64,000 nt of DNA from Nitrospinales bacterium (GTDB taxonomy: Bacteria; Nitrospinota; Nitrospinia; Nitrospinales; JAJDAT01): the NCBI GenBank assembly GCA_046757665.1, contig JBHHYO010000002.1, positions 43,129 through 107,128 on the forward strand. Direction: 5' to 3'. This document shows, one piece after another, positions 1 through 41,284 of this stretch. Position numbers and translations under genes: made by a program. How positions within the stretch are numbered: the first letter of the stretch is position 1; every line of letters begins with the position of its first letter. The notes beneath the pieces are model-generated. The model ran no database searches. It was given only the letters and a program-made list of their open reading frames with translations, and was not told the DNA's origin.

Positions 1-822
1 CAATGCGCCGACTTGCAAAGTCTCAAGGCCGTGCTTTCCACCGGCTCTCCCCTCGACGCAGAAAGCTTTCGCTGGGTTTACGAAAATGTAAACCGGCACG
101 TTCAACTATCCTCCATAAGCGGCGGAACGGATATTATCTCCTGTTTTATGCTGGGCAACCCCATGTTTCCGGTAAGAGCTGGGGAAATTCAATGTCTCGG
201 CCTGGGCATGGATGTTGCGGCCCTGGATGAGCAAAACCATCCGGTTCTGAATCAAAAGGGGGAACTGGCCTGCCTGTCTCCCGCGCCGTCCATGCCGATT
301 CATTTCTGGGACGACCCGGACGGAGAAAAATATCGAGATGCTTATTTCAACAAAGTTCCCGGAGTATGGATCCATGGCGATTTCATAGAAATCAAGAAGC
401 ATGGAGGAGTCCTCGTTTACGGCCGGAGCGATGCAACGCTTAATCCCGGCGGAGTACGCATCGGCACCGCAGAGATTTACCGGATTGTCGAGCAGTTGGA
501 TGAAATCCAGGATAGCTTGATCATTGGCGTGGAAAAAGACACCGATATCCGAATGATTCTTTTTGTGGTGCTAGTCCATCCGTTGCGTCTGGAAGAACCC
601 CTGATGAAAAAAATCAAAAGCCGTCTCAAAACAGAAGCCAGCCCGCGCCATGTGCCGCAGGAAATCCACCAAGTCAAGGAAATCCCCCACACCCTCAATG
701 GGAAAAAAGTCGAACTCATCGTCCGCAACATATTTCAAGGAATCCCGGTAAGCAATAAAGACGCCCTCGCCAATCCCGACTGCCTGGCAGAATTTGAAGC
801 ACTCCGCTCGCAAAAAGCTTAA
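1..822 (+). CDS. Acetoacetate-CoA ligase (acetoacetyl-CoA synthetase), C-terminal part; 5' end lies outside the window
   Basis: Motifs STGSPL, SISGGTDIISCF, GEIQCLGLGM, PSMP, VWIHGDF, YGRSDATLNPGGVRIGTAEIY and GKKVE are typical of this ANL-family subgroup. Confidence 0.9.
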   Translation, partial: QCADLQSLKAVLSTGSPLDAESFRWVYENVNRHVQLSSISGGTDIISCFMLGNPMFPVRAGEIQCLGLGMDVAALDEQNHPVLNQKGELACLSPAPSMPIHFWDDPDGEKYRDAYFNKVPGVWIHGDFIEIKKHGGVLVYGRSDATLNPGGVRIGTAEIYRIVEQLDEIQDSLIIGVEKDTDIRMILFVVLVHPLRLEEPLMKKIKSRLKTEASPRHVPQEIHQVKEIPHTLNGKKVELIVRNIFQGIPVSNKDALANPDCLAEFEALRSQKA

Positions 823-989
823 ACGGATCGATCGAAGCCGAAATCACCAGCACATTCGGATGATGGCTTCCGCCTGTTTTATTACTTGGCATTACCGGTC
901 ATTCTATGTCAGGATATTATCGCCGCCCCTGGAACCGGCCGCGAGGGGCCTCTTTGGCTTGTACAGAAAGAACGATTTGGAGAAATAAA

Positions 990-1754
990 TTGTTTGTGGG
1001 TTCCAAGCTCTGGAAAGGGCAAAAACATTATCTCAACAAGATGACTCTGGCGGATCTGGTGGCGGCCTATTTCGCCTATCCCGCCATCCAGGCCTACCTT
1101 TCTCTCACCGCAGTCAGCATCGGGCTGACCCTCCTTTGGGCGAAAGATATCGGGGCCATCGTTCTGTCTGTCGGCGCGGCAGTGGTGATTTACGGATTAG
1201 TCTGGTACCTTCTGCACCGATTCATTCTCCACGGACAGTTTCTCTACAAATCGCCCCGCACGGCGGCTCTGTGGAAACGCATCCACTTCGATCATCATCA
1301 GGACCCCAACGACCTCGGTGTTTTGTTCGGCGCACTGCATACCACCCTGCCGACGATTTTTTTCATGACCGTCCCGATAGGCTGGCTGATCGGCGGCCCG
1401 GCCGGCGGCGCGGCGGCGTTCGCGGCGGGGCTGGTGACCACCTGTTATTATGAGTTCTGCCATTGCATCCAGCATCTGGCCTATACCCCAAAATGGGCCT
1501 TTCTCCGCCGCATCAAGAAACTTCACCTGGCGCATCATTTCCATAACGAGCAAGGCAATTACGGCATCACAAATTTTTTCTGGGACCGGCTCGCGGGAAC
1601 CTATTACCCAAGCACCAACCAAGTCCCACGTAGCGCCACCGTTTTCAACCTCGGTTATGTGAACAAGGAATCCGAGCAATTCCCCTGGGTGGCAGAACTG
1701 TCCGGCGCAAATGTTGACACCGATCCAGGTTGCGCCCAAAGAAAAACGGGCTAA
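990..1754 (+). CDS. Fatty acid hydroxylase / sterol desaturase family protein (candidate sphingolipid 2-hydroxylase)
   Basis: Four His boxes (HRFILH, HFDHH, HCIQH, HLAHH), NYGIT..FWD motif and hydrophobic helices. Start placed at TTG 990 after GGAG (979-982); the ORF track starts at 906. Confidence 0.85.
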   Translation: MFVGSKLWKGQKHYLNKMTLADLVAAYFAYPAIQAYLSLTAVSIGLTLLWAKDIGAIVLSVGAAVVIYGLVWYLLHRFILHGQFLYKSPRTAALWKRIHFDHHQDPNDLGVLFGALHTTLPTIFFMTVPIGWLIGGPAGGAAAFAAGLVTTCYYEFCHCIQHLAYTPKWAFLRRIKKLHLAHHFHNEQGNYGITNFFWDRLAGTYYPSTNQVPRSATVFNLGYVNKESEQFPWVAELSGANVDTDPGCAQRKTG

Positions 1755-1829
1755 ACCCAAACCACCGGCATCATAACTTGAGCAACTCCGCGGTTTCCCT
1801 ATAAAGAAACTTCCTGAACCGCCCTTCCT

Positions 1830-4241
1830 TCAGTTTCTTGGTTCCTTTCTTCTGTTGTACTTGTAAAAGACCAGCTTGTGCGTATCCAGCTCAAACAAGG
1901 CCGGCAACATGAACAACGCGCAAGCCGTGCACGTTAATATCCCCAATTGAACCAGGGAAGCGATGGACTGAATACCGGCGTGCGACGCAATATTCAAACT
2001 GCCGTATCCGGCCAGGCTGGTCAAAGCCGAAAGGATGATAGCGCTCCCCGTTTCTTTTAAGGAAGTCAACGATCCTTCTCGGGAATAATCCTGTATGTGA
2101 TGAGCCAGATAGATGCAATGATCAATCATGATCCCGACAATCGAAGGTAGCATAACGAAGTTGATGAAATTAAGCTTGATATGTGAAACGGACAACAAGG
2201 CACCCGTCAAGGTCAAGCCGGCAAACAAAGGCAAAAAAGTTTTTAAAGCCAACCGCATACTCTGCATGTCAATTACCAAAATTAAAAACACAAGGCCCAT
2301 GGCTATTGCAAGAGTCCAGGGGCCTTTAGTTTTCACCCAGTCCAGGATTTTTGCCGCGAGCAGGTTTTCATTCATAACCGCGGTCTGTATGTGCCTTGGC
2401 TCGAGAGCCCGTTTCAAGTCCTGGATTTCCTTTTCCAGTTGATAAATATTCCTCACGTCAAAAAAATCCTTTTCGGCAGGGGAAAGAATCAGAACCAGAT
2501 ACTCCTCCTGAACTTTAAACTTTTTAACAAGAATTTTCGGCACCCGGGATTCATCAAAAGGTTTGGGGTTGACCAGCCGCTGAAGCTTGCGGAACCTCGA
2601 TTCGCCAAGGGACAATTTAATAATATCTTTTTCCCTCTCAAATAGCTCCCGGATGCGGACAAGCACGTCCTTTTTCGATTCATATTCCCGTGCGCTAAAC
2701 AGATTCAGGGAATGATGCAATCCAATAGTGGAATTCTCCCCATTTTTCTTTTTGATCCTGGCCAGAGCCTGGTGAATATAAAAAAGGTTTTCCTTTTTCG
2801 GCGTGAGGATCAACGTGGGAGAAAATGCAAAACCGAAGTCCCTGGTAGTGGCCGTTTCATAATCTCCCGCCGGTGATTCGCCGCGTAATTTTTTGAAATC
2901 GTATTCAAATTGCACGCCAGGCAACAAAAAAAGGCTGGAAACCGTCAGCAACATAAAAAGAACCGTCAGGAAATAAGGCGTGTTTGAATAAAGCCTGGAA
3001 ATCTTCAACGTAAACAACCGGGGCCTGGGTTTTCCAACCCAATGGATTTTATTGTAAAAAAGCACCTGCGCGGGGAAGATAAAATGATAGGTAATAAAAG
3101 CAAGGGTGATCCCCATGGCGGCAATCATTCCGAACTCGGAGAATCCCCTGAATTCAGAAAAGATCAAAACGGAAAAGACACTGATGGTGGTAAACATGGC
3201 CACCATCGCGGATCGTCCTACCTGGGTCATAACCAGTTCCGTAGCGGCGGGAATGGATTTCCCCTTGACCAGTTCCTGTTTGAAGCGGATATAAAAATGA
3301 ATTCCATAATCGACCCCAAGCCCCAGGAGAATCGCAACTAAAAATCCTGTGACGATATTGACATGGCCGATGACCAACCGTGTCAACGCAAAGGTATACG
3401 TCAGGGACAAGAGAAGAGGAAAAATAATCAGCGGAATCGAAAACACCGAACGGGTATAAATCAAAATGAGGGCGGTGGTCAGAAAAACGGCCAAAACCGC
3501 CGAACGCTTCAAGTCGCGTATTACCGTTTGATTCTCCTCCAGCCTCACCATCAGGGACCCGGTCAATTTGATTTGAAGGCCGGGTATTTTGCTTTCCAAA
3601 CCGGAGCGGCGGATTTCTTCCCGAACCCGAGCGACAAAATTTTCTGTGAAGGTTGTGTCCGTTACGGTTCCTCTTGGCTGTACGAAAATGTAATAATTTT
3701 TTTTACTCTTTCCCCGGTAGTAAGGGTTGATCTCTTCAAACAGGTTGTAATCATCAGCCAAAGATTGAAGCCTTTCGGGATTGAACAGTTCGGTTCCCAA
3801 ACCAAAACCTCCCAGTTCCTCCCGGGCGTACTCGACCGCTTCCTGCATGAGGGACTCCAGTTCAAGTAAATCCTGCCTGGAAACCAAAAGGAGCTGTCGA
3901 TTGTTCAAATAATCCTTGGGAATATGGGAATCGACGTAATAAGTATCGGGCAATTTTTCCAACCGGCGCGTCAATTCATTCAGAACCATTGGAGCTTTAT
4001 TCTGGTTCAAACCTTCCAGAACAAGGACAAGGGGGCCGGAGCCTCCCGTCTTCTCGACCACATGATTGAACTCCTTGACCAGTTGCAGATTTTCGGGGAG
4101 AAGATTATCCATCCGCGGGTTGTACGTCAAACCCGACGCGATCATCAGCGAAAAGCCGCTTGAAACAACAGCCAGCGCCAAAAGAGTCCCCGGGTATTTT
4201 GAGGTGATGTTCTGATAAAACCATTTAAGAATTGTTTTCAT
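1830..4241 (-). CDS. MMPL/RND-family lipid transporter (HpnN-like architecture)
   Basis: About 803 aa with two repeats of TM + periplasmic domain + 5 TM. Motifs GLGVDYGIH and GIMIDHCIY. ATG 4241 overlaps the end of the upstream gene. Confidence 0.88.
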   Translation of the reverse strand: MKTILKWFYQNITSKYPGTLLALAVVSSGFSLMIASGLTYNPRMDNLLPENLQLVKEFNHVVEKTGGSGPLVLVLEGLNQNKAPMVLNELTRRLEKLPDTYYVDSHIPKDYLNNRQLLLVSRQDLLELESLMQEAVEYAREELGGFGLGTELFNPERLQSLADDYNLFEEINPYYRGKSKKNYYIFVQPRGTVTDTTFTENFVARVREEIRRSGLESKIPGLQIKLTGSLMVRLEENQTVIRDLKRSAVLAVFLTTALILIYTRSVFSIPLIIFPLLLSLTYTFALTRLVIGHVNIVTGFLVAILLGLGVDYGIHFYIRFKQELVKGKSIPAATELVMTQVGRSAMVAMFTTISVFSVLIFSEFRGFSEFGMIAAMGITLAFITYHFIFPAQVLFYNKIHWVGKPRPRLFTLKISRLYSNTPYFLTVLFMLLTVSSLFLLPGVQFEYDFKKLRGESPAGDYETATTRDFGFAFSPTLILTPKKENLFYIHQALARIKKKNGENSTIGLHHSLNLFSAREYESKKDVLVRIRELFEREKDIIKLSLGESRFRKLQRLVNPKPFDESRVPKILVKKFKVQEEYLVLILSPAEKDFFDVRNIYQLEKEIQDLKRALEPRHIQTAVMNENLLAAKILDWVKTKGPWTLAIAMGLVFLILVIDMQSMRLALKTFLPLFAGLTLTGALLSVSHIKLNFINFVMLPSIVGIMIDHCIYLAHHIQDYSREGSLTSLKETGSAIILSALTSLAGYGSLNIASHAGIQSIASLVQLGILTCTACALFMLPALFELDTHKLVFYKYNRRKEPRN

Positions 4242-5082
4242 TGCACAGCAAAAACCGATGAAGTCCGAGCGTTGTAATATATTGTGCCCCCATGAGGTAA
4301 GCCATGGGGACCAGGAAAACGTCAAGAACACCAAGAACGGCAAACAGGGCGATAAGAAAAAGAGGCAGGTCGAGACCGTTCCACTTCCAGACAGCCATCA
4401 TAAGTTTGGCTTTTTGGTAATACTGTTCCCGTTGCCGCTCCGTCAGCAGAGTTTTTTCAACAATGTTTTTTTTCTCTTCATCAAGCCGGCTGAAAGAAAG
4501 CCAGCGTCCCTGAAACAAAAACCGCTGAAACTGCAAGTAATAAAAATAACTCCGGAGAACAACGGACTTCTCCTTTCTCATTTTCTGAAAAGTTTCCAGA
4601 ATTTCCCTTTTATTCCCGTCGTATCCATCGCGCACCAACGTGGTCATGCTTTGTTTGCAATAATCGTAGGATATGGCCCGCAAAATAGTTAACAGCGCGA
4701 TGCAGGCCAGGGAACCATAGTATGCCCCCATGCCAACCATGATGCCGATGACGACGGCGCCATAAGCAATGTAACCGGCAATGCCGTCGAGGAGCCTTCC
4801 CCATTCACTTGATCGGCCCGTGGCTCGTGCAAGTTGTCCGTCCACGCAATCCAGGATCAGGGTAATCTCCAAAAGCACCCCTCCCCAAACCATCGACGAG
4901 ACACTCCCCCGGCTAAAGACGTACCCCGACCACATACCAAACAGAACGGAAGCATAGGTCACCTGATTGGGAGTGACCGCGGTTTTTTTCAAAAAGCCAA
5001 CCATGGCTCCGGCAACAGGCACATGCAAATAACGGTTGACCGGTTCTTCAAGGTCTTTCAGAAAATGGCCGGATTTTTCCAT
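4225..5082 (-). CDS. CDP-alcohol phosphatidyltransferase family protein
   Basis: TPNQVT and DCVDGQLAR...GRLLDGIAG, matching DxxDGxxAR-GxxxD with the last Asp replaced by Gly. Confidence 0.88.
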   Translation of the reverse strand: MEKSGHFLKDLEEPVNRYLHVPVAGAMVGFLKKTAVTPNQVTYASVLFGMWSGYVFSRGSVSSMVWGGVLLEITLILDCVDGQLARATGRSSEWGRLLDGIAGYIAYGAVVIGIMVGMGAYYGSLACIALLTILRAISYDYCKQSMTTLVRDGYDGNKREILETFQKMRKEKSVVLRSYFYYLQFQRFLFQGRWLSFSRLDEEKKNIVEKTLLTERQREQYYQKAKLMMAVWKWNGLDLPLFLIALFAVLGVLDVFLVPMAYLMGAQYITTLGLHRFLLCNENNS

Positions 5083-5094
5083 AAGGACGATGTA

Positions 5095-6102
5095 TTACAA
5101 CCAGCGATGATTCTTATACCAATCAAGCGTTTTCGCCAGTCCCGCATTTAAATCATAACGTGGCTGAAATTCATATTGATCCATGAATTTTTCGCATGAT
5201 GCGGTCCAGGAGCTTTGACAAATATCGATCAGCCTCTGCCTGTCCAGCAGAGCGGGTTTCGTGCCGAACCGCGCCAGCGTTTCGCAAAGCAATGCCAAAG
5301 GCATCAAGGCACCTTCCGGAACCCTCAGCGATCGCGCCTTCACACCAAGAGCCCGCATGGCCGCCTGAGCCACATCCTCCCATGAGTACGTATTGCCGTC
5401 GGTGACAAAAAAAATATTCTCCTCTTGCCGGGGAGCGGCCGCGGCCATGACCATGGCGCGCACCAGGTCGGCAACATAAATCAAGGAAAGGTCGCGCCGG
5501 GTTCGACCGATTTTAATGTTCCATCCGCGACTCACCGTCCTGAGATAGACGAAAAAATTGTTCTCCCTGGGACCGTAAACCACGGGGGGGCGTAGAATGA
5601 CGATGGGCAGGGAAGAGGAAAACTGTCGGGCGATTTCCTCCCCGGCAAGCTTGGATTGTCCATAAAATGTAAGAGGACGGCAGGGCGTTTCCTCATTAAC
5701 CGGTCGATCCGGCTCTGCCGGGCCAACGGCCGCCAGACTGCTCAAGTGAACGACCGCCTTGAGCCGTTTTCCACGGGCCACGCAGTTGCTGTAAAACGGA
5801 GAGCAGAGGTCGGCATTGATTCGGAAATATTCTTGCCGCGTTCTGGCTTGCGTCAATCCCGCGCAGTGAAACAAATATTCCGCATCTTCCAGGCCATCGC
5901 CAAGCCGTTCCAATCGAGTCAGGTCCGCAGTATGAAGATGTACCCGGGAGGAATCGAGCCAGCGAAGGTCACTGGTCTTGCGAACCAGACAATGGACCGT
6001 GCAACCGAGGCTTAGGAGATAATCAACCAGATGACTGCCGATAAACCCGGACGCGCCTGTGACCAGCACAGTGGCGGGGTCAATTTTCGCAGGTTCGTTC
6101 AT
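5095..6102 (-). CDS. NAD(P)-dependent epimerase/dehydratase, extended SDR (candidate ceramide reductase, CerR-like)
   Basis: VLVTGASGFIG, HCAG, SSLAA, YGQSK and RPPVVYGP motifs. ATG 6102 overlaps the 3' end of the GNAT gene. Confidence 0.8.
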   Translation of the reverse strand: MNEPAKIDPATVLVTGASGFIGSHLVDYLLSLGCTVHCLVRKTSDLRWLDSSRVHLHTADLTRLERLGDGLEDAEYLFHCAGLTQARTRQEYFRINADLCSPFYSNCVARGKRLKAVVHLSSLAAVGPAEPDRPVNEETPCRPLTFYGQSKLAGEEIARQFSSSLPIVILRPPVVYGPRENNFFVYLRTVSRGWNIKIGRTRRDLSLIYVADLVRAMVMAAAAPRQEENIFFVTDGNTYSWEDVAQAAMRALGVKARSLRVPEGALMPLALLCETLARFGTKPALLDRQRLIDICQSSWTASCEKFMDQYEFQPRYDLNAGLAKTLDWYKNHRWL

Positions 6103-7204
6103 AGATGCGGTGCCGCTTGTAAACATCGGCGCCCATTCGATAAAGAGGAGCCAACATCGCCTGGTTATCTTCCAAAATCCAGGACATTTCGCACAACGCA
6201 ACTTTTTGGTCTAGGCACCGCCTATAAGTCTTGTGATAAAAAGAAACATCAATTCCCAAGCGTTGGAACTTCTTTTTTACACCGAGGGTCAGAACCCGGT
6301 AGGAATCGATTTTCTTCCTGTTCATTAAAAACCTGGCCCATCCAAAGGGAAAGAGCTTGCCGTCCAGGGTTTTGAGCACTTGATTAATGTCGGGAAGAGT
6401 CAGGGAGAAACCCACCGGTTCATCCTTAATTTCCGCAATCAAACAAAACTCGGGCTCAATGAAATGTTTCATCTCATCGGCGGCAAAGTAAAATTCGTCG
6501 CGAGTCATGGGCGTGAACCCCCAGTTGCGCTCCCAGGCGGAATTATAAATTTCCCATAAAACGTCTATTTCTTTTTGAAACTGATCCATCCGCAGACAGC
6601 GCACGGTAAACCGGTTTCTTTTTTGAATTCGGACCATCGCTTGCTCCAGGTACTCCGGCATTCTTATGAAAGGCGCGATTTTCAGGCAAACAAGGTCTTT
6701 GGCTTTTGTCAACCCCCAGCCTTCCAGCAGGCTCGAATAATAAGGAGGATTATAAGGTATCCCCAACATGGGAGCCTTGTCGAATCCCTCTACAAGCAGG
6801 CCGCATTCGTGGTTGATGGAGAGGTTCATAGGGCCCAGAAGTTTTTTGAGTCCCTTCGCCCGGCACCCTTCATAGACGACATCCAGCAACCGGTCCGCCA
6901 CCTCCCGGTCGTCAATGGACTCAAACAGGCCGAAAAAACCGACTTCCTGCGAGTGAAACGTATTGTGTGCGTGATCTACGACAAAGGCAATCCGTCCCAC
7001 CGGTTGCCTGTTTTCCCCCAGAGCCAGAAAAAAATCGACTTCGGCATGGTCGAAGAACGGGTTGGCTTTTGGATCCAGAAATTTTTTGCGTTCCACAAGC
7101 AAGGGAGGAACCCATCGGGAGTCATTCTTGTAAATTTCCCAAGGCAACTTGATGAATGCGTGCTTGTCTGCCGGCGTTTCGACCTTTTGAATTTCCGGGC
7201 GCAT
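6080..7204 (-). CDS. GNAT-fold N-acyltransferase (bacterial ceramide synthase bCerS-like)
   Basis: WVPPL..ER, NPFF.HA, GRI, FG.FE..DD, GP.N.S.N.ECGLLVEGF, YNPPYY, W..NWGF.P.T, LPD.N and E.SWILEDN motifs of the bCerS-like GNAT family. It directly follows spt with a TAATG overlap. Confidence 0.82.
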   Translation of the reverse strand: MRPEIQKVETPADKHAFIKLPWEIYKNDSRWVPPLLVERKKFLDPKANPFFDHAEVDFFLALGENRQPVGRIAFVVDHAHNTFHSQEVGFFGLFESIDDREVADRLLDVVYEGCRAKGLKKLLGPMNLSINHECGLLVEGFDKAPMLGIPYNPPYYSSLLEGWGLTKAKDLVCLKIAPFIRMPEYLEQAMVRIQKRNRFTVRCLRMDQFQKEIDVLWEIYNSAWERNWGFTPMTRDEFYFAADEMKHFIEPEFCLIAEIKDEPVGFSLTLPDINQVLKTLDGKLFPFGWARFLMNRKKIDSYRVLTLGVKKKFQRLGIDVSFYHKTYRRCLDQKVALCEMSWILEDNQAMLAPLYRMGADVYKRHRIYERTCEN

Positions 7205-8532
7205 TACCGCGGAATAATTCCCAGCTCGGTGCCGAACTTCTTGAAAGCCGACAGCACCCGGTCGAGGTCTTCCCGAGTATGGGAAGAGGTGTAACTGGAA
7301 CGAATCATGGCATTGAGGGGGGGAACTACAGGGGATACCGCCACGCCCGCAAAAACTCCATCATTGAACAAAAGCTGGTTGAGATACAAAGTCAAGGCTT
7401 CGTCGCCAATCTTGATGGGAACGATGGGAACCTGATTGTTGTTGATCTGGAAACCCATCTCGAAAAATCCCTTTTTGATATAAGAGGTATTTTCATGCAA
7501 CCGGTCGATGCGTTCGGTTTCCCGGCTCATAACGTCGAGGGCGGCGATCACTCCGGCAACCGACGCAGGCGGCAAGGCCGCCGTAAAAATAAACGCCGAG
7601 GCCTTGTGGCGGATAAACTCGGTGACCTTGGAATTGGCCGAAACGAAACCACCAATGGACCCCAGGCTCTTGGAAAAAGTCCCGACATAAATGTCGATTT
7701 CCTTTTCCAGGTCGAAATAACTTGTCAACCCTTTTCCACGGTCTCCCATAACGCCCAGCCCGTGAGCCTCATCCACCAGAACGCTGGCCCCATAGTCTTT
7801 CGCCAGCTTGACGATGCCGGGAAGATTGGCCACATCACCGCTCATGCTGAACACACTGTCCGTAATAATCAGTTTGCCGTCAACATCGGCATACCTCTTC
7901 AGACAGTACTCCAGATGATCCATGTCATTGTGCCGATAGCGCACGGTCTTGCCCGGCGCAATGGCGCACCCCTCATAAATGCTGGCATGATTTTCGCGGT
8001 CCGAAAAAGCAATGTCCTTGCGTCCCAGCAAACACGAGATGGTCCCCTGATTGGCCTGGAATCCGGTGGACATAACAATCGTGTCCTCGCGGCCGAGAAA
8101 ATCCGACAACGTCTTTTCCAACGTCCTGTGCAGGGTAAGGGTGCCGTTGAGAAACCGACTGCCGGTACAACCCGCGCCGAATTTTTCCAGCGCCTTTGTC
8201 GCCGCGGCAATTACGCGGGGATCCTTGGTCAAGCCCAAATAATTATTGGTCGAAACGGTTATAACGTCCCTGCCTTCGATAACCACATGAGCGCCATCCA
8301 TCTCCTCGGTCTCGCGGAAATACGGATAAATGCCCAAATCCTTGGCTTGATCGGGAGCGTCATAACTGAAACACTTGGAAAGAATGCCCTCGCCTTCCTT
8401 GGTCAGAAGCCGCAAGTGCGCATTCTCAAAATCGAACTTCTTCTTTAATAAAGAAATAATTTTGTCACGTTTCAGATGAGGCGGGGTGTCTTCCGGAGTT
8501 TCGTCCAGAACCGGCTGATGAAGATTTTTCAC
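7204..8532 (-). CDS. spt: Alpha-oxoamine synthase, serine palmitoyltransferase-like
   Basis: GIYPYFR, NNYLGL, GCTGSRFLNGT, STGFQAN, NHASI, DEAH and the PLP-lysine motif GTFSKS (Spt-type, versus GTLGKA/TFGKA in Kbl/BioF). Genomic context includes bCerS-like and CerR-like genes. Confidence 0.82.
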   Translation of the reverse strand: MKNLHQPVLDETPEDTPPHLKRDKIISLLKKKFDFENAHLRLLTKEGEGILSKCFSYDAPDQAKDLGIYPYFRETEEMDGAHVVIEGRDVITVSTNNYLGLTKDPRVIAAATKALEKFGAGCTGSRFLNGTLTLHRTLEKTLSDFLGREDTIVMSTGFQANQGTISCLLGRKDIAFSDRENHASIYEGCAIAPGKTVRYRHNDMDHLEYCLKRYADVDGKLIITDSVFSMSGDVANLPGIVKLAKDYGASVLVDEAHGLGVMGDRGKGLTSYFDLEKEIDIYVGTFSKSLGSIGGFVSANSKVTEFIRHKASAFIFTAALPPASVAGVIAALDVMSRETERIDRLHENTSYIKKGFFEMGFQINNNQVPIVPIKIGDEALTLYLNQLLFNDGVFAGVAVSPVVPPLNAMIRSSYTSSHTREDLDRVLSAFKKFGTELGIIPR

Positions 8533-9113
8533 GGCTTCGAAATTATCCTTTTAGGTTGGAGTTTAAATTTGAGAAACCAGGAGCTTCTCTGAAGGCTCGA
8601 CAGACACGGTTTCTCAGGATCTTTTTCTATTCACCGGAAACTCTTTAATTATTTCCCAACGCAAATCACGCAAGGGTAACATTAAATGCCCGTTTTGACA
8701 AGCGAAACTATAAATTTTCGCAAATCATCGCTTAATTTAATTAAATTTAACTGCAACTCAAAAGCCGATTCGTTAACATTCCCGAAAACATCCAACTACA
8801 AATTTCCCTCCACGCCCCTTTTCCGGGCCGTTGAACAACGACTCAAAAATCATCTTCACCAAAAACCTGCCGCACTTTCAACGAAGCGACCCGGTTTGCG
8901 CCGCACTTTTTCCTTAACGGCATCTTGCCGCTATTTATGACCCCGCCCACGCAAGAACTTTCCGGCGCGGAGGTTTTATAAAACCCGCCAAGGGAGACTT
9001 ATGAAATCCGAAGGCTTGTAAAGGAGCAGATGAAACGAGAAAGCGGCCGGGAAAAAACCGCGACACGAATCCGCGAAAGACCCGGACGCCAAACGGATAA
9101 GGCTGGCACGAAA

Positions 9114-9665
9114 TTAAAGTTTTTTGACCTGATTCTTGACCTGATAATAGCGGAAAAACGCGCCCATCATTATAATAATCAACAGCGCCAAAACCATCAA
9201 CGCCCCTTCCATGATAAGCGTCAAGGACAGAGGCATATTTTCCAGAATCCATACGACAATTTGATGCAACCCATACCAGGAGTCGGGGTCGCTAAGCCAG
9301 GCCTGGAGCGCCGTACCCTGAAACAGGTAATTAAACGCAACGATAAGAGGAAACTCGGTCCACGTGCCGCTTTGCAACCAGAGAAACCCTTGATACCCCA
9401 GCAGGAAAAATCCGGAAAAAAATACCAGCGACGCCGACACAACGGCTATCCCGCCGACAAAGCCAAGAAAAAAATCCAGCGGCGTCAGCTTTCGCACAAT
9501 TTCTTTAGACTCCGCCCAGCCTTTCAGGGCCATTTGTTTCGCGCGGATTTTCAGACGTTCCTTCAGCTCCACGCAAACCAGTATCGCAGGCTCAACCCAA
9601 TGGGTTATCTCCGCGATCCAGCGGGAACCATTGAACCCTCTTTCATAAAATTTTCTTTCCGACAT
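9114..9665 (-). CDS. Hypothetical membrane protein
   Basis: ATG 9665 preceded by GGAGG. Two to three hydrophobic segments with YQ..LWL..G.W and W.GL..IV.W.L motifs. Function unknown. Confidence 0.7.
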   Translation of the reverse strand: MSERKFYERGFNGSRWIAEITHWVEPAILVCVELKERLKIRAKQMALKGWAESKEIVRKLTPLDFFLGFVGGIAVVSASLVFFSGFFLLGYQGFLWLQSGTWTEFPLIVAFNYLFQGTALQAWLSDPDSWYGLHQIVVWILENMPLSLTLIMEGALMVLALLIIIMMGAFFRYYQVKNQVKKL

Positions 9666-9937
9666 GGGATTGCCCTCCCCGTATTTGGAAACCGCGGGAT
9701 TGCGGCTTTTTAACCTGGATCTTTCTTTTCGGTGGCGGTTCATCATTTCTCTACTCAACCTGCTCCTCTCGACCGGAGCAAACGATCATGATCCAATCCA
9801 TTTACAAGTATAGAACCATTATCATTATTTTCAACAAAAAGCATCTGCTTTATAAAATCCCGCTTTCAACTCCATACCGGGAACTGTGCCGGCCCGCAGG
9901 CCGGAAATATAAATTTAATCAAATTTAAACAATATTA

Positions 9938-9967
9938 TTGACATTTATTTAAAAATATCTATACTAT
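9938..9967 (+). promoter_or_regulatory. Sigma70-like promoter with no downstream ORF
   Basis: TTGACA (9938-9943) followed by TATACT (16 nt spacer) or TACTAT (18 nt spacer), with an AT-rich upstream tract. Confidence 0.6.
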
Positions 9968-9969
9968 AT

Positions 9970-10047
9970 ACAGATTGTATGTCCTCCTGTATTTGGACCC
10001 GCTTGTTTGGCCTCCTTCCCCCCCTGACAAGCGGGTCTACCTATTTG
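9970..10047 (+). ncRNA. Candidate small RNA with anti-Shine-Dalgarno-like CCUCCU motifs
   Basis: Lies downstream of the orphan promoter. TCCTCCT at 9982-9988 and a perfect 11 bp stem GACCCGCTTGT/ACAAGCGGGTC (9996-10006/10027-10037) enclosing a CCTCCTTCCCCCCC loop. Confidence 0.4.
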
Positions 10048-10111
10048 TAACCCCAAATTTTTCAAACCGTAATGCCCCTGTTTGCCAAAACCGGCAACGC
10101 TTTGGCAATCA

Positions 10112-12166
10112 TCAGCGGGGGCTGGCGGCGATGTTGCCGCCGTCAACGGTGATTACGCTTCCGGTGGTCTTTTCCGCCAGGGCAAGGTGCAAAAATCCCT
10201 CGGCCACGTCGGTATCGTAAACTTCCCGCGCCAGCAGGTTGTTCTTAAAATATTCATCGGCCTTCAAACCCCGCGCGCCGGCCCGCTCGGCGATAACCCG
10301 CGGCGAAAACAGGCCCGTCCGAACCCGGTCCGCGTTCACGGCATTCGACCGGACGCCCTCCTTGCCGTAGTCCAAGGCATATTGCTTGGCCAGGGCGACC
10401 ACGGCGGCCTTGGGCAGGGCGTAGGGACCGAAGTCCTTGCCCGGATTGAAAGCCGCCTTGGAAGCGTTGAACAATAAAACGCCGCCGGTTTTTTGCGCCA
10501 GAAAAATCCCGACCGCCCGCGCCGCCAGGCTCTGGTGAGCGAAAAAATTCAGATCGAAACTTTTCCGCAACACCGCGCCGTCCAGTTGCCCGATCCTCCC
10601 CTGAACCGCGTTGCCGGCATTGGATATCAGAATGTCCAGCCCCCCGTAAGCCGTTACCAGTTGGTCGAACGACTCCGCAACGGCTTCCTCATCGGTAACG
10701 TCGAGGACACAGGTCGTGACGCCGACGGCGGATTCCTCTTCGATGGTTTGCCGCGCCGCGACGAGCCTGGCTTCGTCCCGGTCCACCAGAAACAGGTTGG
10801 CGCCGTTTTTGGCGAACAGCCGGGCGGTGGCCAATCCGATCCCCGATGCCGCGCCCGACAGATAAACCACCCTCCCCTGAAGTTTCGCCGGCTTGCTCTT
10901 GCCCAGTTTGGCCTGCTCCAGCGACCAGTATTCCATGTCAAACAGATCGGCATCGTCGAGCGGCGCAAAACTTCCCACGCGGAACGCCTTTCGCACGGTG
11001 TCGATGGTGTGCTCGTAAATGTCCGCGGCAATACGGGTTTCCTTCGTCGTTTTCCCAAGAGTCAACAGCCCCAGCCCGGCGACGAGAACGACCCGCGGCA
11101 AGGGGTCCAGCTCCTTCTTGTCAACCCCCTTGGCTTCCCGGTTGGACATAAAGTACCGGTGATAATTTTTAATGTAACTCTCCAGGGCGGCGGCAATCTC
11201 CTGCCGCAATGCTTCCTCATCGTCCAGCGACTGCGGATTCAACAGCAACGGTTTTTGCTTGGTGCGAATCACGTGATCCGGCGTCGCCGTGCCGATTTGC
11301 GACCAGACGGCGCACTCCTTGCTGGAAGCGAAATCCCGTGCCGCCTCGCTTTGCCGATGATGCGCCACCCAGGACGCCCCCGACTGTTTCCGGTACAAGC
11401 CGCGCAACAACGGGCCGATTTTTCGCAGGATTTCCCCCGCGTCGGCGGAAGCAACCGAAATGGGCGTCAGCTTCTTCTCCGCCTTGCCGGCAATATATTT
11501 CTCCGCCCGCGCCACCGCCTCGATGTGGTAGTCATAACTTTCCCGGGCGGTTTCGGCAAACGTGAACAATCCGTGATTGATCAGCACCAGGCCCTTGACG
11601 CCGGGATTTTTCTCATAAGCCTCGGCGGCGGCCTTGGCGAGGGCAAACCCCGGCATGATGTAAGGCACAACCCCCAGAAAATCGCCGAACACCTCCCGGC
11701 ACAGCGCCTCGGCGTTCGGCTGGTTGGCGAGAACCAGAATCGCGTCGGCGTGGGAGTGGTCGACGAACTTGTGCGGCAGAAAAGCGTGCAACAGCGTTTC
11801 CACCGAGGGATTCGGCGACTTGGCGTCCAGCAAGTGAGTGCGCTGGTCGTTGACCATGGCCTCGTCACTGAGACTGCCCAGCTTTCTGAGCTTCAGCAGG
11901 TAATCGAGTTCGACCCCCGGCAAGCCCGGCGGTTCCAGAGTGTCCAGGTCCCAGCCGCTACCCTTGACGTAAAGCGCCCGCACCTCTTCCCCCACCCGGT
12001 TTTCGATCACCGACTTTACCGAGGTATTGCCGCCGCCATGTAGCACCAGAGCGGGGTCCGAACCGATCAGCCGGGACGTGTACACCCGCAGAGCGATGTC
12101 CTCGGAATAATCGGCGTATTTTTTCTTGAAAGCCTCTGCTTCTTCATCTTTCCATCGATTTTGCAT
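10112..12166 (-). CDS. Bifunctional class II aldolase / short-chain dehydrogenase (RhaD/YuxG-like)
   Basis: N-terminal GGGNTSVK, KGSGWDL, PSVETLLHA, DHSHAD, NHGL and TPDH. C-terminal GAASGIG, SNAG and YALPKAA. Confidence 0.92.
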   Translation of the reverse strand: MQNRWKDEEAEAFKKKYADYSEDIALRVYTSRLIGSDPALVLHGGGNTSVKSVIENRVGEEVRALYVKGSGWDLDTLEPPGLPGVELDYLLKLRKLGSLSDEAMVNDQRTHLLDAKSPNPSVETLLHAFLPHKFVDHSHADAILVLANQPNAEALCREVFGDFLGVVPYIMPGFALAKAAAEAYEKNPGVKGLVLINHGLFTFAETARESYDYHIEAVARAEKYIAGKAEKKLTPISVASADAGEILRKIGPLLRGLYRKQSGASWVAHHRQSEAARDFASSKECAVWSQIGTATPDHVIRTKQKPLLLNPQSLDDEEALRQEIAAALESYIKNYHRYFMSNREAKGVDKKELDPLPRVVLVAGLGLLTLGKTTKETRIAADIYEHTIDTVRKAFRVGSFAPLDDADLFDMEYWSLEQAKLGKSKPAKLQGRVVYLSGAASGIGLATARLFAKNGANLFLVDRDEARLVAARQTIEEESAVGVTTCVLDVTDEEAVAESFDQLVTAYGGLDILISNAGNAVQGRIGQLDGAVLRKSFDLNFFAHQSLAARAVGIFLAQKTGGVLLFNASKAAFNPGKDFGPYALPKAAVVALAKQYALDYGKEGVRSNAVNADRVRTGLFSPRVIAERAGARGLKADEYFKNNLLAREVYDTDVAEGFLHLALAEKTTGSVITVDGGNIAASPR

Positions 12167-12254
12167 ATCAGGAAAATAGCAAAACTCCGCATAAACTTAA
12201 AGATAAAAGCGGGGACGATGAAAACCGCCCGCCTGACCGAGCTCGCCCGCATTC

Positions 12255-12285
12255 CTGTCATGGTGAGCCCGTCGAACCATGACAG
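12255..12285. repeat. REP-like hairpin (GTCATGGTGAGCCCGTCGAACCATGAC family)
   Basis: Perfect 10 bp stem CTGTCATGGT/ACCATGACAG. A related half, CCCTTCGACAAGCTCAGGGCGAC, lies at 21363-21385. Confidence 0.65.
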
Positions 12286-12560
12286 CACCTGACTGGAGCC
12301 GGTTTTCGCAGAAAAAAAATTTTGAAAAAACGAGGAACGAAATAGTCTAAATGACAGGTTATAAACCCGGAAAACCCTTGTCATGCAACCGGTTTTCCAG
12401 CTCTCCCGTCAGGTAAAAAATCAACGATTTTCGCGGCAAAACGGCCCAAAAACCGGATCGAATTTTTCCTTGTATCCATATGACTTTAAATAACTTGTAA
12501 AGACAGGTTTTGGCATGTCGAACCCCGCCATTTGAAGATTAAAATTTACAATACCGAAAT

Positions 12561-12590
12561 CACCACGGAGTCACAGAGACACACAGAAAA
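12561..12590 (+). repeat. CACCACGGAGTCACAGAGACACACAGA short tandem-motif repeat
   Basis: Three CAC(A/G)GA-like units. Resembles a dispersed repeat I recall flanking GxxExxY genes (not verified). Confidence 0.4.
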
Positions 12591-12604
12591 GCCCCCTTCA
12601 AGGA

Positions 12605-12739
12605 GAGACCTTTGCATAAGTGTACTGGTTTGATTGTCATTGCGAGGCGGCTCAGCCGACGAGGCAATCCAGAAAGGACCATTCCCACCGGGCGTGGCCC
12701 GGCTGGATCGCCACGCCGCCGATGGCGGCTCGCGATGAC
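12605..12739 (+). mobile_element. MITE-like repeat, copy 1 (right end missing)
   Basis: Left end GAGACCTTTGCATAAG and palindromic core GTCATTGCGAG...CTCGCGATGAC (12636-12739) shared with four other loci. Confidence 0.75.
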
Positions 12740-12763
12740 ACCGAAGTTGATTTCCATGGCGTG

Positions 12764-12815
12764 GTGGCGCGGACTTTCCAGTCCGCGCATGGGCAGGCTG
12801 GAAAGCCTGCCCCAC
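12764..12815. repeat. Inverted REP doublet (REPIN-like)
   Basis: Two 9 bp stems, GCGCGGACT-ttcc-AGTCCGCGC and GGGCAGGCT-ggaa-AGCCTGCCC, in inverted orientation, each with an outer GTGG end. Confidence 0.7.
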
Positions 12816-12830
12816 CATTTCAGGGCCACC

Positions 12831-12858
12831 GCAGGGAACAGACATGTCTGTTCCCTGC
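12831..12858. repeat. Perfect 28 bp palindrome
   Basis: GCAGGGAACAGACATGTCTGTTCCCTGC equals its own reverse complement. Confidence 0.85.
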
Positions 12859-13059
12859 TTCCCGCGGTCTCCCGTCTCCGGGTTTTATCCCCCTACATAT
12901 AGCGCGAAATACAGGTATGCAACCGCGCAACCCTTTTCAATCCTGCGGGTTAAAAAAATAATGGGAGAGGCGCCGGGCGAAATATTTCGTCATCGCCTTG
13001 AGCCGTCGGAGAATAGACTTTTTCCCCCGGCGCTACTGGAAGTATTTTATACTGCCGTC

Positions 13060-13131
13060 ATGAAAGTCTGTATCCATCGAGGGACACAGGAGATCGGCGG
13101 CGCCTGCACTGAGCTTGAGAAAGAGAAATAA
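13060..13131 (+). pseudogene. 23-codon N-terminal remnant of an MBL-fold (RNase J/beta-CASP-like) hydrolase
   Basis: MKVCIHRGTQEIGGACTELE matches the IHRG..EIGG.C.E start of this family. It stops 2 nt before the SGNH gene. Confidence 0.65.
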
Positions 13132-13133
13132 TA

Positions 13134-14375
13134 ATGGTTGAAGATAGCTCCAGGACAAGCAAAAGAAGTCTTTGGGTCAATATCTGCGTGTTCAGCTTCA
13201 GCCTCTTTATTTCCTTGTTCCTTGCGGAGATGGCGGTAAGAACGCTCAGGCCGGATTTAAAATATTTGGTCCAAAGCCAGTTTGAAGAAAACAGATTCCG
13301 AATTCACGCCAATATCAAGAATACCGCGGGGTTTTATCCTCATCCCGATTCCGGGAAAAACCATATGGTAAGGCACAATTCGCTGGGCTTGCGGCAACAC
13401 AGAGAGTTTGACCGCAACAAACCGGCCCAAACCACCCGCATCGGTTTCTTTGGTGATTCCTTCACCGAAAATGTTCGTATGCCGGTACAGTACTCCTTTA
13501 CGGAACCTTTGGACTTCCTTCTCAATCGGACAGGCAAGGCTTTTGAAGTCCTGAATTTCGGCACGGATGGCTACGGCACGGATCAGGTTTATCTGCAATA
13601 TATGGAAGAGGGCAAAAAATCAAATTTGGACTTCGTCGTCTATTTATATTGTGAAAACGATTTGCGGGATATTTTGGCGAACAAGCTGATAGATATCGAC
13701 GAAAAGGGAAACATCAAATACATTCCGGCATTGCCCTCGGGCCTTTTTGTCTCAACCGTGAAAAAATTTTACCTTACCTACCTCTTGCTGGAGGCGCTAC
13801 TCAAATGGAATGTGGTGAAAGATAATTTCCTCAATGAGCGGTTGGACCCAAACAAAATCCGGGACGCTACAGATCATCAGGAAGAGGGAAGGCGCAAGTA
13901 CGAGGCGCTGGCCAGACAACTGGAACAGGACCCGGAGAATCCGGAATTGAAACACGCGCTGAAAATATTTTCCGCTCTGATGCAAGCAATGAAAAAGGAA
14001 AGCGAATCGAATTCATCGCGGTTGTACGTGGTTCTCTTTCCCGGATACAAATCAAACAACAAGGGCGTCCACAACCAGAAAATCACAAAGGTTCTTGAGG
14101 GCCTCGGGATTGACGTTTTAGACCTTTTCCCTGTATTCCGGCAAACGGAAAACCGTCATCGACTCAATCTCTATTTCAAAAAAGACAACCATTGGAACGA
14201 GGAAGGAAACAAAATAGCCGCGGTGGAGATATTCAAATTTCTCGCCGAAAAACTCGGATTGGTTTTTGCGGGCGACGCCTTCATAAAGGAAGGACTGAAC
14301 GAATATTACAGCTCCTTCCCGCCGGTTGCAATCAGCGATGTATGGCTTCAAAAAAAACCGTTGCGGACAACTTGA
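13134..14375 (+). CDS. SGNH/GDSL hydrolase family protein, membrane anchored
   Basis: N-terminal TM helix, HNSLGLR, block I FGDSFTE, NFGTDGYGTDQ, END and the catalytic DNHWN. Confidence 0.88.
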   Translation: MVEDSSRTSKRSLWVNICVFSFSLFISLFLAEMAVRTLRPDLKYLVQSQFEENRFRIHANIKNTAGFYPHPDSGKNHMVRHNSLGLRQHREFDRNKPAQTTRIGFFGDSFTENVRMPVQYSFTEPLDFLLNRTGKAFEVLNFGTDGYGTDQVYLQYMEEGKKSNLDFVVYLYCENDLRDILANKLIDIDEKGNIKYIPALPSGLFVSTVKKFYLTYLLLEALLKWNVVKDNFLNERLDPNKIRDATDHQEEGRRKYEALARQLEQDPENPELKHALKIFSALMQAMKKESESNSSRLYVVLFPGYKSNNKGVHNQKITKVLEGLGIDVLDLFPVFRQTENRHRLNLYFKKDNHWNEEGNKIAAVEIFKFLAEKLGLVFAGDAFIKEGLNEYYSSFPPVAISDVWLQKKPLRTT

Positions 14376-25073: not shown

Positions 25074-26300
25074 ATGACTGTTTATTTTTACCAGGCCACG
25101 GACCGGACCGGGAAGGTCATTGAAGGCAATATCGACGCGCCGGATTACCGCCTGGCGATTCAAAAGGTGCGCGGCCTGAATTATTTTCCCATTCAGGTTT
25201 CGGAACAAAAAATCAAAAACGGTTTTTCTCTTAACCTGGATTTTTCCGGTTTCCGGCTTTTCCCGAAAATCTCGCACAAGCAATTGCTGGCATTCACTCA
25301 GCAATTGGCCACGCTGGTATCTTCCGGCTTGACTCTGGACAAAAGCCTTTCCGTGCTGGTGAAACTGGCCGACGGGGAAGCCATCCGCTCCACCCTGACC
25401 GACATCCAAAAGCGGGTGCACTCGGGGAGCACTTTCGCCGATGCGTTGAACCGTTACCCGAACATATTTTCCAAGCTCTACCTCAACATGATCCGGGCGG
25501 GGGAAACCGGAGGCATTCTCGGCCCCGTTCTTTTGCGGCTGTCGGATTTTCTGGAAAGTAGCGAGGAGTTGAAAAACAATATTCGATCGGCGCTGGTGTA
25601 TCCTATTCTTTTGACGCTGGTGGGCGGAGCGGCAATCGTGGTGCTGATGACGGTGGTGATTCCAAAGTTTGCCGTTATTTTCTCCGACCTGGATCAAGGG
25701 CTCCCGCTTCCCACAATGCTCCTCCTTGCGACAAGCGACTTTATCGGAAAGTACTGGTGGGCGCTTATCCTGCTTCTTGTCGGAGGAATCGTTTCGTTGA
25801 GCCGGTACCTGAAAACGGAGGCGGGAAAACACCGCTGGGACAGCTTGCTGTTAAAGCTCCCCCTGTTCGGCGCTCTGGTTCAAAAAATCGAGGTCTCCCG
25901 GTTCAGCCGCACCATGGCCGCGCTGTTGAACAGCGGCGTGCCCATTCTGCAATCGCTCTCCGTCGTGCAGTCCATTCTGGGCAACAGCGTCATCGCGGCT
26001 TCCATGGACAGCCTCCATAAAGGCCTGAAGGGAGGCAAAGGAATTTCGACCCCGCTCCAGAAAGCCGACCTTTTCCCGCCGATGGCCGTTCACATGATCA
26101 CCGTCGGCGAAGAAACGGGGACCCTGGAAGAAATGTTAACCAAAATAGCCGACAATTACGATAAAGAGGTGGCGCGCGCCATCAAAAGCCTGATCTCACT
26201 CATCGAACCCCTCATGATCCTCATCATGGGCGCGGCAGTGGGTTTCATTGTAATTTCCATGTTGATGGCTGTTTTCAGCATCAACGACGTTCCACTTTGA
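25074..26300 (+). CDS. gspF: T2SS inner membrane platform protein GspF
   Basis: FTQQLATLVSSG, AGETGG, ALVYP, GEETG and IEP. Confidence 0.95.
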   Translation: MTVYFYQATDRTGKVIEGNIDAPDYRLAIQKVRGLNYFPIQVSEQKIKNGFSLNLDFSGFRLFPKISHKQLLAFTQQLATLVSSGLTLDKSLSVLVKLADGEAIRSTLTDIQKRVHSGSTFADALNRYPNIFSKLYLNMIRAGETGGILGPVLLRLSDFLESSEELKNNIRSALVYPILLTLVGGAAIVVLMTVVIPKFAVIFSDLDQGLPLPTMLLLATSDFIGKYWWALILLLVGGIVSLSRYLKTEAGKHRWDSLLLKLPLFGALVQKIEVSRFSRTMAALLNSGVPILQSLSVVQSILGNSVIAASMDSLHKGLKGGKGISTPLQKADLFPPMAVHMITVGEETGTLEEMLTKIADNYDKEVARAIKSLISLIEPLMILIMGAAVGFIVISMLMAVFSINDVPL

Positions 26301-26325
26301 TTAACCGGTTTTAAGGTCGGAGACC

Positions 26326-26745
26326 ATGAAACATCAAAAAATTCGGACAGGACTTGGGCGTTTGCAAGCCAACGGTTTTACCTTGATTGAACTGCTCGTG
26401 GTGATGGTGATCATCGGCTTGCTGGCTTCCCTTGTCGGGCCGAAATTATTCGGTCACGTGGACAAGGCCCGGCAAAAGGATGCCCAGGCGCAAATTGAAC
26501 TGCTGAGCCAGGCGCTGGACCTCTACCGCCTGGAAAACCACAAATTCCCCACCACCTCCGAAGGGCTGGAGGCTATCGAACCCTATCTCAAGAAAGAAAT
26601 CCCAAAGGACCCCTTTGGAAACGACTATGTTTATAAATCACCCGGCATCCACGGAGACTACGATTTATTGTCCTATGGAGCCGACAACGCCGAAGGAGGA
26701 GAGGGCAACGACAAGGACATCGTCAATTGGAAAAACCTTGAGTAA
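26326..26745 (+). CDS. gspG: Major pseudopilin GspG
   Basis: G|FTLIELLVV, ALDLYRLE, DPFGNDY.Y.SPG and SYGAD..EGG.G...DI.NW. Confidence 0.95.
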   Translation: MKHQKIRTGLGRLQANGFTLIELLVVMVIIGLLASLVGPKLFGHVDKARQKDAQAQIELLSQALDLYRLENHKFPTTSEGLEAIEPYLKKEIPKDPFGNDYVYKSPGIHGDYDLLSYGADNAEGGEGNDKDIVNWKNLE

Positions 26746-41249: not shown

Positions 41250-41284
41250 GATATACCCTCCTTGCTCAAATTAAAGTAAACGGC

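Follow-up and report, generated by a model that had tools for sequence, protein, structure and literature searches.

A five-gene operon of Nitrospinales predicted to encode ceramide synthesis, a headgroup phosphotransferase and an MMPL lipid exporter

The ceramide pathway described for Caulobacter and Escherichia coli BL21 comprises three clustered enzymes, namely a serine palmitoyltransferase (Spt), an N-acyltransferase (bCerS) and a reductase (CerR). BL21 Spt has been shown to be active, and yghO/ECD_02850 and ECD_02852 are listed as homologous to the acyltransferase and the reductase of Caulobacter, respectively (PMC9386255). In Caulobacter, CerR is periplasmic and the order of the reactions is debated (PMC11087976). 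Sphingolipids are exported there by LptF2G2, with an MmpL encoded next to spt in Myxococcus proposed as an alternative, and their exit from the inner membrane is an open question for bacteria devoid of the LptF2G2 pair (bioRxiv 10.64898/2026.04.12.717747). Spt-like genes have further been reported from 38–40 phyla of Black Sea genomes, which are unnamed in the main text (PMC11334938), and a literature search listed no paper whose title or abstract concerns sphingolipids of Nitrospina. Here, we analysed a 64,000-nucleotide stretch of DNA from a Nitrospinales bacterium (positions 43,129 to 107,128 of contig JBHHYO010000002.1, assembly GCA_046757665.1; hereafter the window), which carries spt, bCerS, a cerR-like gene, a gene for a cytidine diphosphate (CDP)-alcohol phosphotransferase (CDP-AP) and one for a transporter of the MMPL family. 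This five-gene unit is best explained as the sphingolipid operon of most Nitrospinales and, as judged from homology, it very probably makes the ceramide backbone.

Relative to the Caulobacter and BL21 systems, the locus shows the same three clustered enzymes, each BL21 protein (ECD_02854, ECD_02850 and ECD_02852) having an operon gene as its best match in the genome, and it is flanked by a hydroxylase gene comparable to one of proteobacterial sphingolipid clusters. It departs from them in that no dedicated AcpR/AasR and no LptF2/LptG2 were found in the genome, where BL21 AcpR, LptF2 and LptG2 had no match and AasR weak generic matches only, and in that the MMPL gene is joined into the operon. 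In addition, Spt is nearer to the Bacteroidota-type SPT, and CDP-AP belongs to a different subfamily from the CpgC-like headgroup enzyme of the Caulobacter type, with a match spanning 66 residues only. By its description, Myxococcus xanthus resembles the present lineage in having an MmpL-family gene downstream of spt together with one lptFG; the export role proposed there is a one-sentence hypothesis on one genome, whereas here joint gain and loss extend across the phylum and include a coupled CDP-AP. A near full-length homologue of CDP-AP occurs in the "alternative" inositol-lipid cluster of Bacteroidota (NTP transferase, CDP-AP and HAD; function unconfirmed, PMC9246714), which likewise has glycine in place of the fourth aspartate (D4) of the family motif, the presumed catalytic base of these enzymes (PMC6506517). 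The Bacteroidota proteins, however, have an aspartate one residue later, where the operon protein has tyrosine, and they are accompanied by a nucleotidyltransferase and an inositol-phosphate synthase, with diacylglycerol as the proposed substrate, whereas the operon CDP-AP is encoded among ceramide genes and its distribution does not follow that of inositol-phosphate synthase. Finally, the HpnN hopanoid and BstA sterol transporters share the fold family of the operon MMPL, including two repeats with a transmembrane aspartate, but the MMPL scored 231 bits against a cut-off of 752 with its best NCBIfam model, HpnN (TIGR03480/NF052374), and 197 bits against 1400 with the BstA-type model.

The five genes are co-directional and occupy the order and coordinates given by the initial annotation (Table 1), which also described the four junctions correctly: a 1-nt overlap between spt and bCerS (TAATG), a 23-nt overlap between bCerS and cerR, a 12-nt gap between cerR and the CDP-AP gene, and a 17-nt overlap between the latter and the MMPL gene. 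In intact relative operons, the 17-nt overlap was estimated in 8/8 and the 23-nt overlap in 7/8, gene starts being extrapolated from tblastn matches, and this recurrence of the same lengths argues that the junctions are not due to chance. Pfam assigned the families Aminotran_1_2, GNAT (20.6 bits, slightly below the 20.7 cut-off), Epimerase, CDP-OH_P_transf and MMPL, and no NCBIfam cut-off was reached by any of the five proteins, so that automated annotation would likely return generic names, as had been anticipated. A promoter and terminator scan gave counts close to chance level, and Rfam yielded no match within positions 1–14000 of the window.

Table 1. Operon genes and the convergent neighbour, with positions in the window.
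Feature	Coordinates	Strand	Remarks
Spt (serine palmitoyltransferase, alpha-oxoamine synthase)	7204..8532	-	442 aa, GTG start
bCerS/YghO-family N-acyltransferase, tandem GNAT fold	6080..7204	-	374 aa
CerR-like extended short-chain dehydrogenase/reductase (SDR)	5095..6102	-	335 aa counted from ATG
CDP-alcohol phosphotransferase (CDP-AP), long "Kennedy-type" subfamily	4225..5082	-	285 aa, PF01066
MMPL/HpnN-like RND transporter	1830..4241	-	803 aa counted from ATG, PF03176
Fatty-acid hydroxylase family protein, convergent accessory outside the operon	990..1754	+	PF04116

The pyridoxal-phosphate lysine of Spt lies in the motif GTFSK (residues 284–288), and the protein has an N-terminal stretch of ~45 extra residues common to its Nitrospinales orthologues. 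Its best matches in the PDB were the serine palmitoyltransferases (SPTs) 3a2b/8guh, with 360 bits, compared with at most 301 for Kbl/BioF and 227–229 for cysteate acyltransferases. A quick tree of 51 rows placed Spt within the SPT clade (SH-aLRT 99), in agreement with a 22-protein subset used for bootstrapping and approximately unbiased (AU) tests, which left out 29 of the 51 rows as well as the cysteate enzymes. In this subset, the SPT clade included the operon protein with support 100/98, and the AU tests rejected its grouping with Kbl (p 5e-5) and with BioF (p 1e-3). The reference members of the clade are from BL21, Sphingomonas, Bacteroides, Parabacteroides and Aureispira, among which BL21 Spt alone is known to have been tested biochemically, and the operon protein is the reciprocal best hit of this enzyme. 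The proposal that the oxoamine synthase is an Spt is thus supported by structure ranking, clade and AU tests alike, and the clustering with Kbl or BioF that had been named as a sign to the contrary was not seen.

The second protein of the operon aligned with BL21 YghO at 36% identity over 375 residues (E 4e-80), is the single match of YghO in this genome, and gave an hhalign probability of 100. A PDB sequence search with it found no match; an alignment-based model reached a pLDDT of 93, compared with 36 for the single-sequence model, and its closest folds were tandem GNATs. Full-length homology and fold bear out the assignment as a bCerS-like GNAT, with BL21 YghO rather than the Caulobacter protein as the reference. 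Among the best 80 of 269 related bCerS loci, which span many phyla, an Spt match accompanied bCerS in 74 loci, and a CerR-like SDR did so in 67. The SDR of the operon displays GxxGxxG at residue 16, where the Rossmann motif begins, and YxxxK at residue 147, with no N-terminal signal peptide visible. It is the best match in the genome to the cluster SDRs of BL21, Sphingomonas and Aureispira (25–34% identity), and the Aureispira protein separated it from a paralogue (218 versus 109 bits). The assignment as CerR is weaker and would depend mainly on synteny: best hits and the strongly conserved gene neighbourhood favour the CerR-like label of the initial annotation, whereas the reciprocal best hit to BL21 CerR is only narrow.

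In CDP-AP, residues D78, D81, G82, A85, R86, G95 and D99 of the D1xxD2G..AR..G2xxxD3 site are invariant in 48/48 rows. Its closest annotated relatives are Bacteroidota enzymes encoded beside cytidylyl- or nucleotidyltransferases, and the nearest structure is AF2299. In metagenomes, 37 of the 42 close orthologues come after cerR, and the remaining five begin <130 nt from a contig edge; none of 38 distant orthologues lies near ceramide genes, and 22 of them, many being near-identical gut copies, are near a nucleotidyltransferase. These neighbours of the relatives suggest a small CDP-alcohol as the donor. The MMPL consists of two repeats, matched by PF03176 in two stretches, with transmembrane aspartates Asp311 (GLGVDY) and Asp707 (GIMIDH) that are present in 38/41 and 40/41 aligned rows, respectively. 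Its best PDB matches are to HpnN. A plasmid search with the MMPL found no match; its nearest Atlas clusters after Nitrospinota were mainly Myxococcota MMPLs, which we take as a lead only, and in another phylum a match of 24–27% was obtained in 7/251 genomes.

The host genome measures 2.97 Mb and is 97.6% complete, and the closest named relatives of its bCerS (54–57%), MMPL and CDP-AP are Nitrospinota/Nitrospinaceae records, in keeping with the view that the organism belongs neither to the alphaproteobacteria nor to the Bacteroidetes. It further contains a frame of ~1160 residues of the type II DMSO-reductase family, which may be NxrA. Distribution was surveyed in 120 genomes of the phylum, 57 of which are at least 90% complete and form the near-complete set. 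A bCerS match was found in 74/120 genomes, 67 with at least 51% identity and seven with only a 39–41% paralogue; MMPL was found in 66, CDP-AP in 64 and Spt in 77 (72 at 69% identity or more). Orthologues of bCerS and MMPL occur together in 63 genomes, and all seven mismatches between the two among the 120 are genomes of 61–83% completeness. In the near-complete set, bCerS, CDP-AP and MMPL occupy the identical 34/57 genomes. In all four families of the order, some genomes have these three genes and others lack them, which implies at least four separate joint changes; a search within the family of the host found a bCerS match in none of its five other genomes. In the 63 genomes with both orthologues, the MMPL gene is at the operon end in 22, upstream of spt beyond a desaturase gene in six, separated from the operon by 46 kb to 1.5 Mb of the same contig in five and on another contig in 30. 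Furthermore, five near-complete genomes (genera g14 and g15) represent a natural deletion in that they retain spt and cerR, the latter ~160–210 nt after the former in 5/5 loci, with bCerS, CDP-AP and MMPL gone. Since these genomes keep spt-cerR and have lost MMPL, the transporter would follow the product of bCerS and CDP-AP, not Spt or CerR. Gene identities, order and conservation, as well as joint gain and loss, are direct observations across these genomes.

The best explanation of the locus as a whole, to which we assign a probability of roughly 0.6, is a ceramide operon with a CDP-AP-derived headgroup and export through the MMPL; the chemical steps are assigned by homology, and the headgroup, the direction of transport and the cargo are predictions. 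Accordingly worded as a pathway, Spt would condense L-serine with a long-chain acyl thioester, either acyl-CoA or housekeeping acyl-ACP, to 3-ketosphinganine, which bCerS would N-acylate and CerR reduce at the ketone to dihydroceramide. The latter would be decorated by the convergent hydroxylase in this organism and by an operon-encoded desaturase in other genera. CDP-AP would then most likely use a small CDP-alcohol as donor and attach its phospho-alcohol to the 1-OH of ceramide on the cytoplasmic face. Finally, the MMPL, a putative proton-driven pump of the HpnN/MmpL type, would move the finished lipid from the inner membrane toward the outer membrane, thus doing the job of the LptF2G2 pair of Caulobacter. 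From the operon, sphingolipids would be expected in the lineage to which abundant marine nitrite oxidisers belong. The suggestion of MmpL export, in turn, gains comparative support from the shared 34/57 genomes, retention of the gene when unlinked and joint loss in the natural deletion, and the compact five-gene unit could be transferred to a laboratory host, with the MMPL as a testable candidate for bacterial sphingolipid export.

Several observations weigh against this reading. Spt failed to reach the cut-off of its best curated NCBIfam model, NF047600 for Bacteroidota SPT (461 versus 640 bits); these models are lineage-specific, and the Aureispira cluster protein likewise falls below, with 487 bits. 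BL21 CerR favoured the operon SDR over the paralogue by 96 versus 89 bits, at 25% identity. CDP-AP has Gly103 where its family has D4, the corresponding residue is glycine in 120/120 of its closest homologues but aspartate in 130 of the 137 members of the wider family with a readable motif, out of 150 examined, and the operon is devoid of a cytidylyltransferase, unlike the 22 of 38 distant family loci. Moreover, no inositol-phosphate synthase could be found in several operon genomes that consist of a single contig (G019, G036 and G077). As for the transporter, 9/9 distant MMPL loci (24–27% identity) are not near spt, bcerS or cerR, and a related MMPL was present in only one of the 80 bCerS loci, itself from Nitrospinota, so that the link to sphingolipid genes is lineage-specific. 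Lastly, the g14 and g15 genomes, with spt, cerR and a second bCerS, appear to make sphingolipids without the operon MMPL, which would consequently not be required for every sphingolipid.

Attachment of a phospho-headgroup to ceramide by CDP-AP is thus only slightly favoured. The claim of a headgroup transferase stands as regards the invariant nucleotide- and metal-binding site and falters at the replaced fourth aspartate, and the phosphosphingolipid put forward as the product is plausible, with the same replacement and the lack of a co-occurring donor pathway as counterweights. The alternative that survives best, albeit unlikely, is that the triad still produces (dihydro)ceramide and that the MMPL acts on it, CDP-AP being a degenerate protein that binds lipid or CDP in partnership with MMPL or bCerS, and the product bearing no phospho-headgroup from it. 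Such a role would be in line with glycine at D4 followed by tyrosine in most orthologues, with the missing partner cytidylyltransferase and the failure to find a general donor pathway co-occurring with CDP-AP, and with the 17-nt overlap and exact co-occurrence with MMPL. It is hard to reconcile, however, with the invariance of D1, D2 and D3 and of the Gly, Ala and Arg of the CDP site, or with the retention of D4 in the same gene context by genus g10 (5/48 rows) and one metagenomic operon. The Bacteroidota relatives also have glycine at this position, with the aspartate one residue on, and the invariant D140 could act as a substitute. A conserved CDP-AP without the fourth aspartate is a mechanistic puzzle of its own.

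Two routes to the headgroup were considered and rejected. Inositol was discarded as a general answer given that inositol-phosphate synthase, found in 63/120 genomes, has a distribution that does not track the operon. A Caulobacter-like route via CDP-ceramide was dismissed upon finding that the kinase and the nucleotidyltransferase of the Roseomonas cluster are unmatched in the genome, which has one unlinked DAGK-domain match. Of note, the host genome encodes two inositol-phosphate synthases (G000:C96:1691-5907 and C25:1971-3822). After one of them comes a stand-alone nucleotidyltransferase, with a nucleotidyltransferase-CDP-AP fusion close by, and after the other an IPCT/DIPPS-like fusion. By their gene content, these loci would provide the capacity for products of the CDP-inositol or di-myo-inositol-phosphate type.

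That the MMPL carries the lipid of this operon is likely, judging from gene distribution. The dedicated exporter claimed by the initial annotation is upheld in its tight functional link to the pathway, which co-occurrence reveals, whereas export itself is deduced from genomes only. This genome has one LptF and one LptG, and the 34 near-complete operon genomes contain two LptF/LptG matches in 31 cases, three in three cases and four in none, so that none possesses a second LptFG pair as in the Caulobacter route. Next among the alternatives, and likewise improbable, is that ceramide and phosphosphingolipid are made, with their export left to the one canonical Lpt system or to a different route and the MMPL transporting something else connected with the pathway, such as an oxo-ceramide destined for a periplasmic CerR, a fatty acid or long-chain base taken up by the cell, or a glycerolipid made by CDP-AP. 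The periplasmic location of Caulobacter CerR, which requires an intermediate to cross the inner membrane (PMC11087976), speaks for the first of these cargoes, and one Lpt pathway for both lipids is left open in 10.64898/2026.04.12.717747; the g14 and g15 genomes hold spt-cerR without MMPL, and the MMPL family has many contexts unrelated to sphingolipids. Yet these same genomes kept cerR and lost MMPL, which therefore tracks the first bCerS and CDP-AP rather than CerR, and the MmpL/HpnN proteins of solved structure are exporters of lipids or siderophores.

A very improbable alternative regards the MMPL as a hopanoid transporter, or CDP-AP as a substitute for missing PgsA, and both as mere neighbours of the ceramide genes. 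The HpnN matches and a squalene-hopene cyclase in the genome would be consistent with the former, and the failure to find canonical pgsA, described below, with the latter; however, a separate 923-residue MMPL (contig C6) reaches 630 bits with the HpnN model and would be a better candidate for hopanoid export than the operon protein with its 231 bits, another full-motif CDP-AP is present with or without the operon, genera devoid of the operon CDP-AP lack pgsA too, and mere neighbours would neither disappear jointly nor persist when unlinked. Almost no weight can be given, finally, to an oxoamine synthase that uses alanine, glycine or cysteate, yielding a 1-deoxy-, amino- or sulfono-lipid, or that is a Kbl or BioF, despite a score below every SPT model cut-off, the long branch that separates the operon protein from other SPTs and the acceptance of alanine by Spt (PMC11334938), in view of the AU rejections, the genome's own Kbl (625 bits, above cut-off, beside tdh) and BioF-like genes elsewhere, the low scores and separate clade of the cysteate enzymes (PMC13692747), and the serine-derived 1-OH that the phosphotransferase would require.

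Returning to the preferred reading of a ceramide operon with headgroup transfer and MMPL export, the triad and, as a hypothesis for Myxococcus, export by a spt-adjacent MmpL are already known; the present analysis adds a concordance that extends across the phylum, a natural deletion, the loss of D4, the hydroxylase and the missing PgsA. As to the latter, canonical pgsA (TIGR00560) was not found at E 1e-15 in 51/51 near-complete genomes of the order, the host included, and was found in 7/7 phylum genomes outside it. A 310-residue full-motif CDP-AP (G000:C76:2029-2961 in the host) occurs in 48/58 genomes and may replace PgsA. In its boldest form, which we regard as tentative and rather doubtful, the reading would have the D4-less phosphotransferase add a novel ceramide headgroup, with extraction of the lipid from the inner membrane falling to a dedicated MMPL in place of an Lpt paralogue. 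Given that no canonical PgsA turned up in the order, the phosphosphingolipid could on this view be one of the main anionic lipids of ocean nitrite oxidisers and a candidate biomarker for them.

The coordinates of the initial annotation stopped short of the convergent hydroxylase gene on the left side. Its product has four histidine motifs and likely starts at TTG 990, the longest reading frame extending from 906, and the gene ends 75 nt from the MMPL stop. It is 59% identical over 241 residues to a protein encoded beside bCerS in the Roseomonas sphingolipid cluster, and is found in 11/120 genomes, all with sphingolipid genes, adjoining the operon only in this genome. By description, it can be likened to a Caulobacter enzyme that hydroxylates the amide-linked chain (PMC11324152), and it is probably a ceramide acyl-chain hydroxylase, accessory to the pathway and outside the operon. 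In genera g18, g20 and g22, a fatty-acid desaturase gene (PF00487) lies directly upstream of spt (e.g. L162:4655-5710, L132, L128 and L260-L301); it was present in 18/42 metagenomic loci, is placed between MMPL and spt in g20 and has no match in this genome.

Some Nitrospinales contain a second sphingolipid-like cluster (L156:5457-19318, L157, L158, L159 and L199-L201; genomes G041, G043, G045, G046, G049 and G051). It encodes a 2560-residue reducing type I polyketide synthase (PKS; KS-AT-DH-MT-ER-KR-ACP) in which no match to an oxoamine synthase was seen. Next to the PKS are genes for a divergent bCerS paralogue, a PAP2_3 protein (AUR1/IPC-synthase-like), a full-motif CDP-AP, a GT2 and a hydroxylase. 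The version in G046 adds a sphingolipid Delta4-desaturase, and one without the PKS occurs in L160 (G012). In the g14 and g15 genomes, this cluster replaces the lost bCerS, and spt-cerR stay at another site. The cluster resembles the Pseudomonas SgaAB system of PKS-derived sphingolipids (PMC12134224), from which it differs in that Spt is a separate protein and a ceramide synthase is present, and it is possibly more novel than the five-gene operon itself. A third LptF/LptG-family gene was found in five genomes with the second bCerS cluster (G012, G043, G045, G049 and G051), and in several genomes an lptF-type gene lies ~10–25 kb from it, which makes an Lpt-linked export route for the lipid of this cluster possible.

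Outside Nitrospinota, a PAP2/AUR1-like gene often comes after the triad in Acidobacteriota and others (loci including L004, L006, L009, L010, L019, L069 and L076), and in Bdellovibrionota the triad is followed by PAP2 and hydroxylase genes, so that the enzyme family occupying the headgroup position varies from phylum to phylum. Within the window, a 214-residue membrane protein is encoded upstream of spt (9114-9758, minus strand), without Pfam or NCBIfam match, and no counterpart of it was found next to the operon of any relative. At 40593-44358 of the minus strand, a second MMPL/HAE3 transporter, unrelated to that of the operon (42061-44358), is followed by genes for a LolA-like/DUF1329 protein (41285-42238) and a redoxin, and the plus strand has a type II secretion/pilus-like cluster at 25074-34238, consisting of GspF, pseudopilins, K, L/PilM-N, M and secretin.

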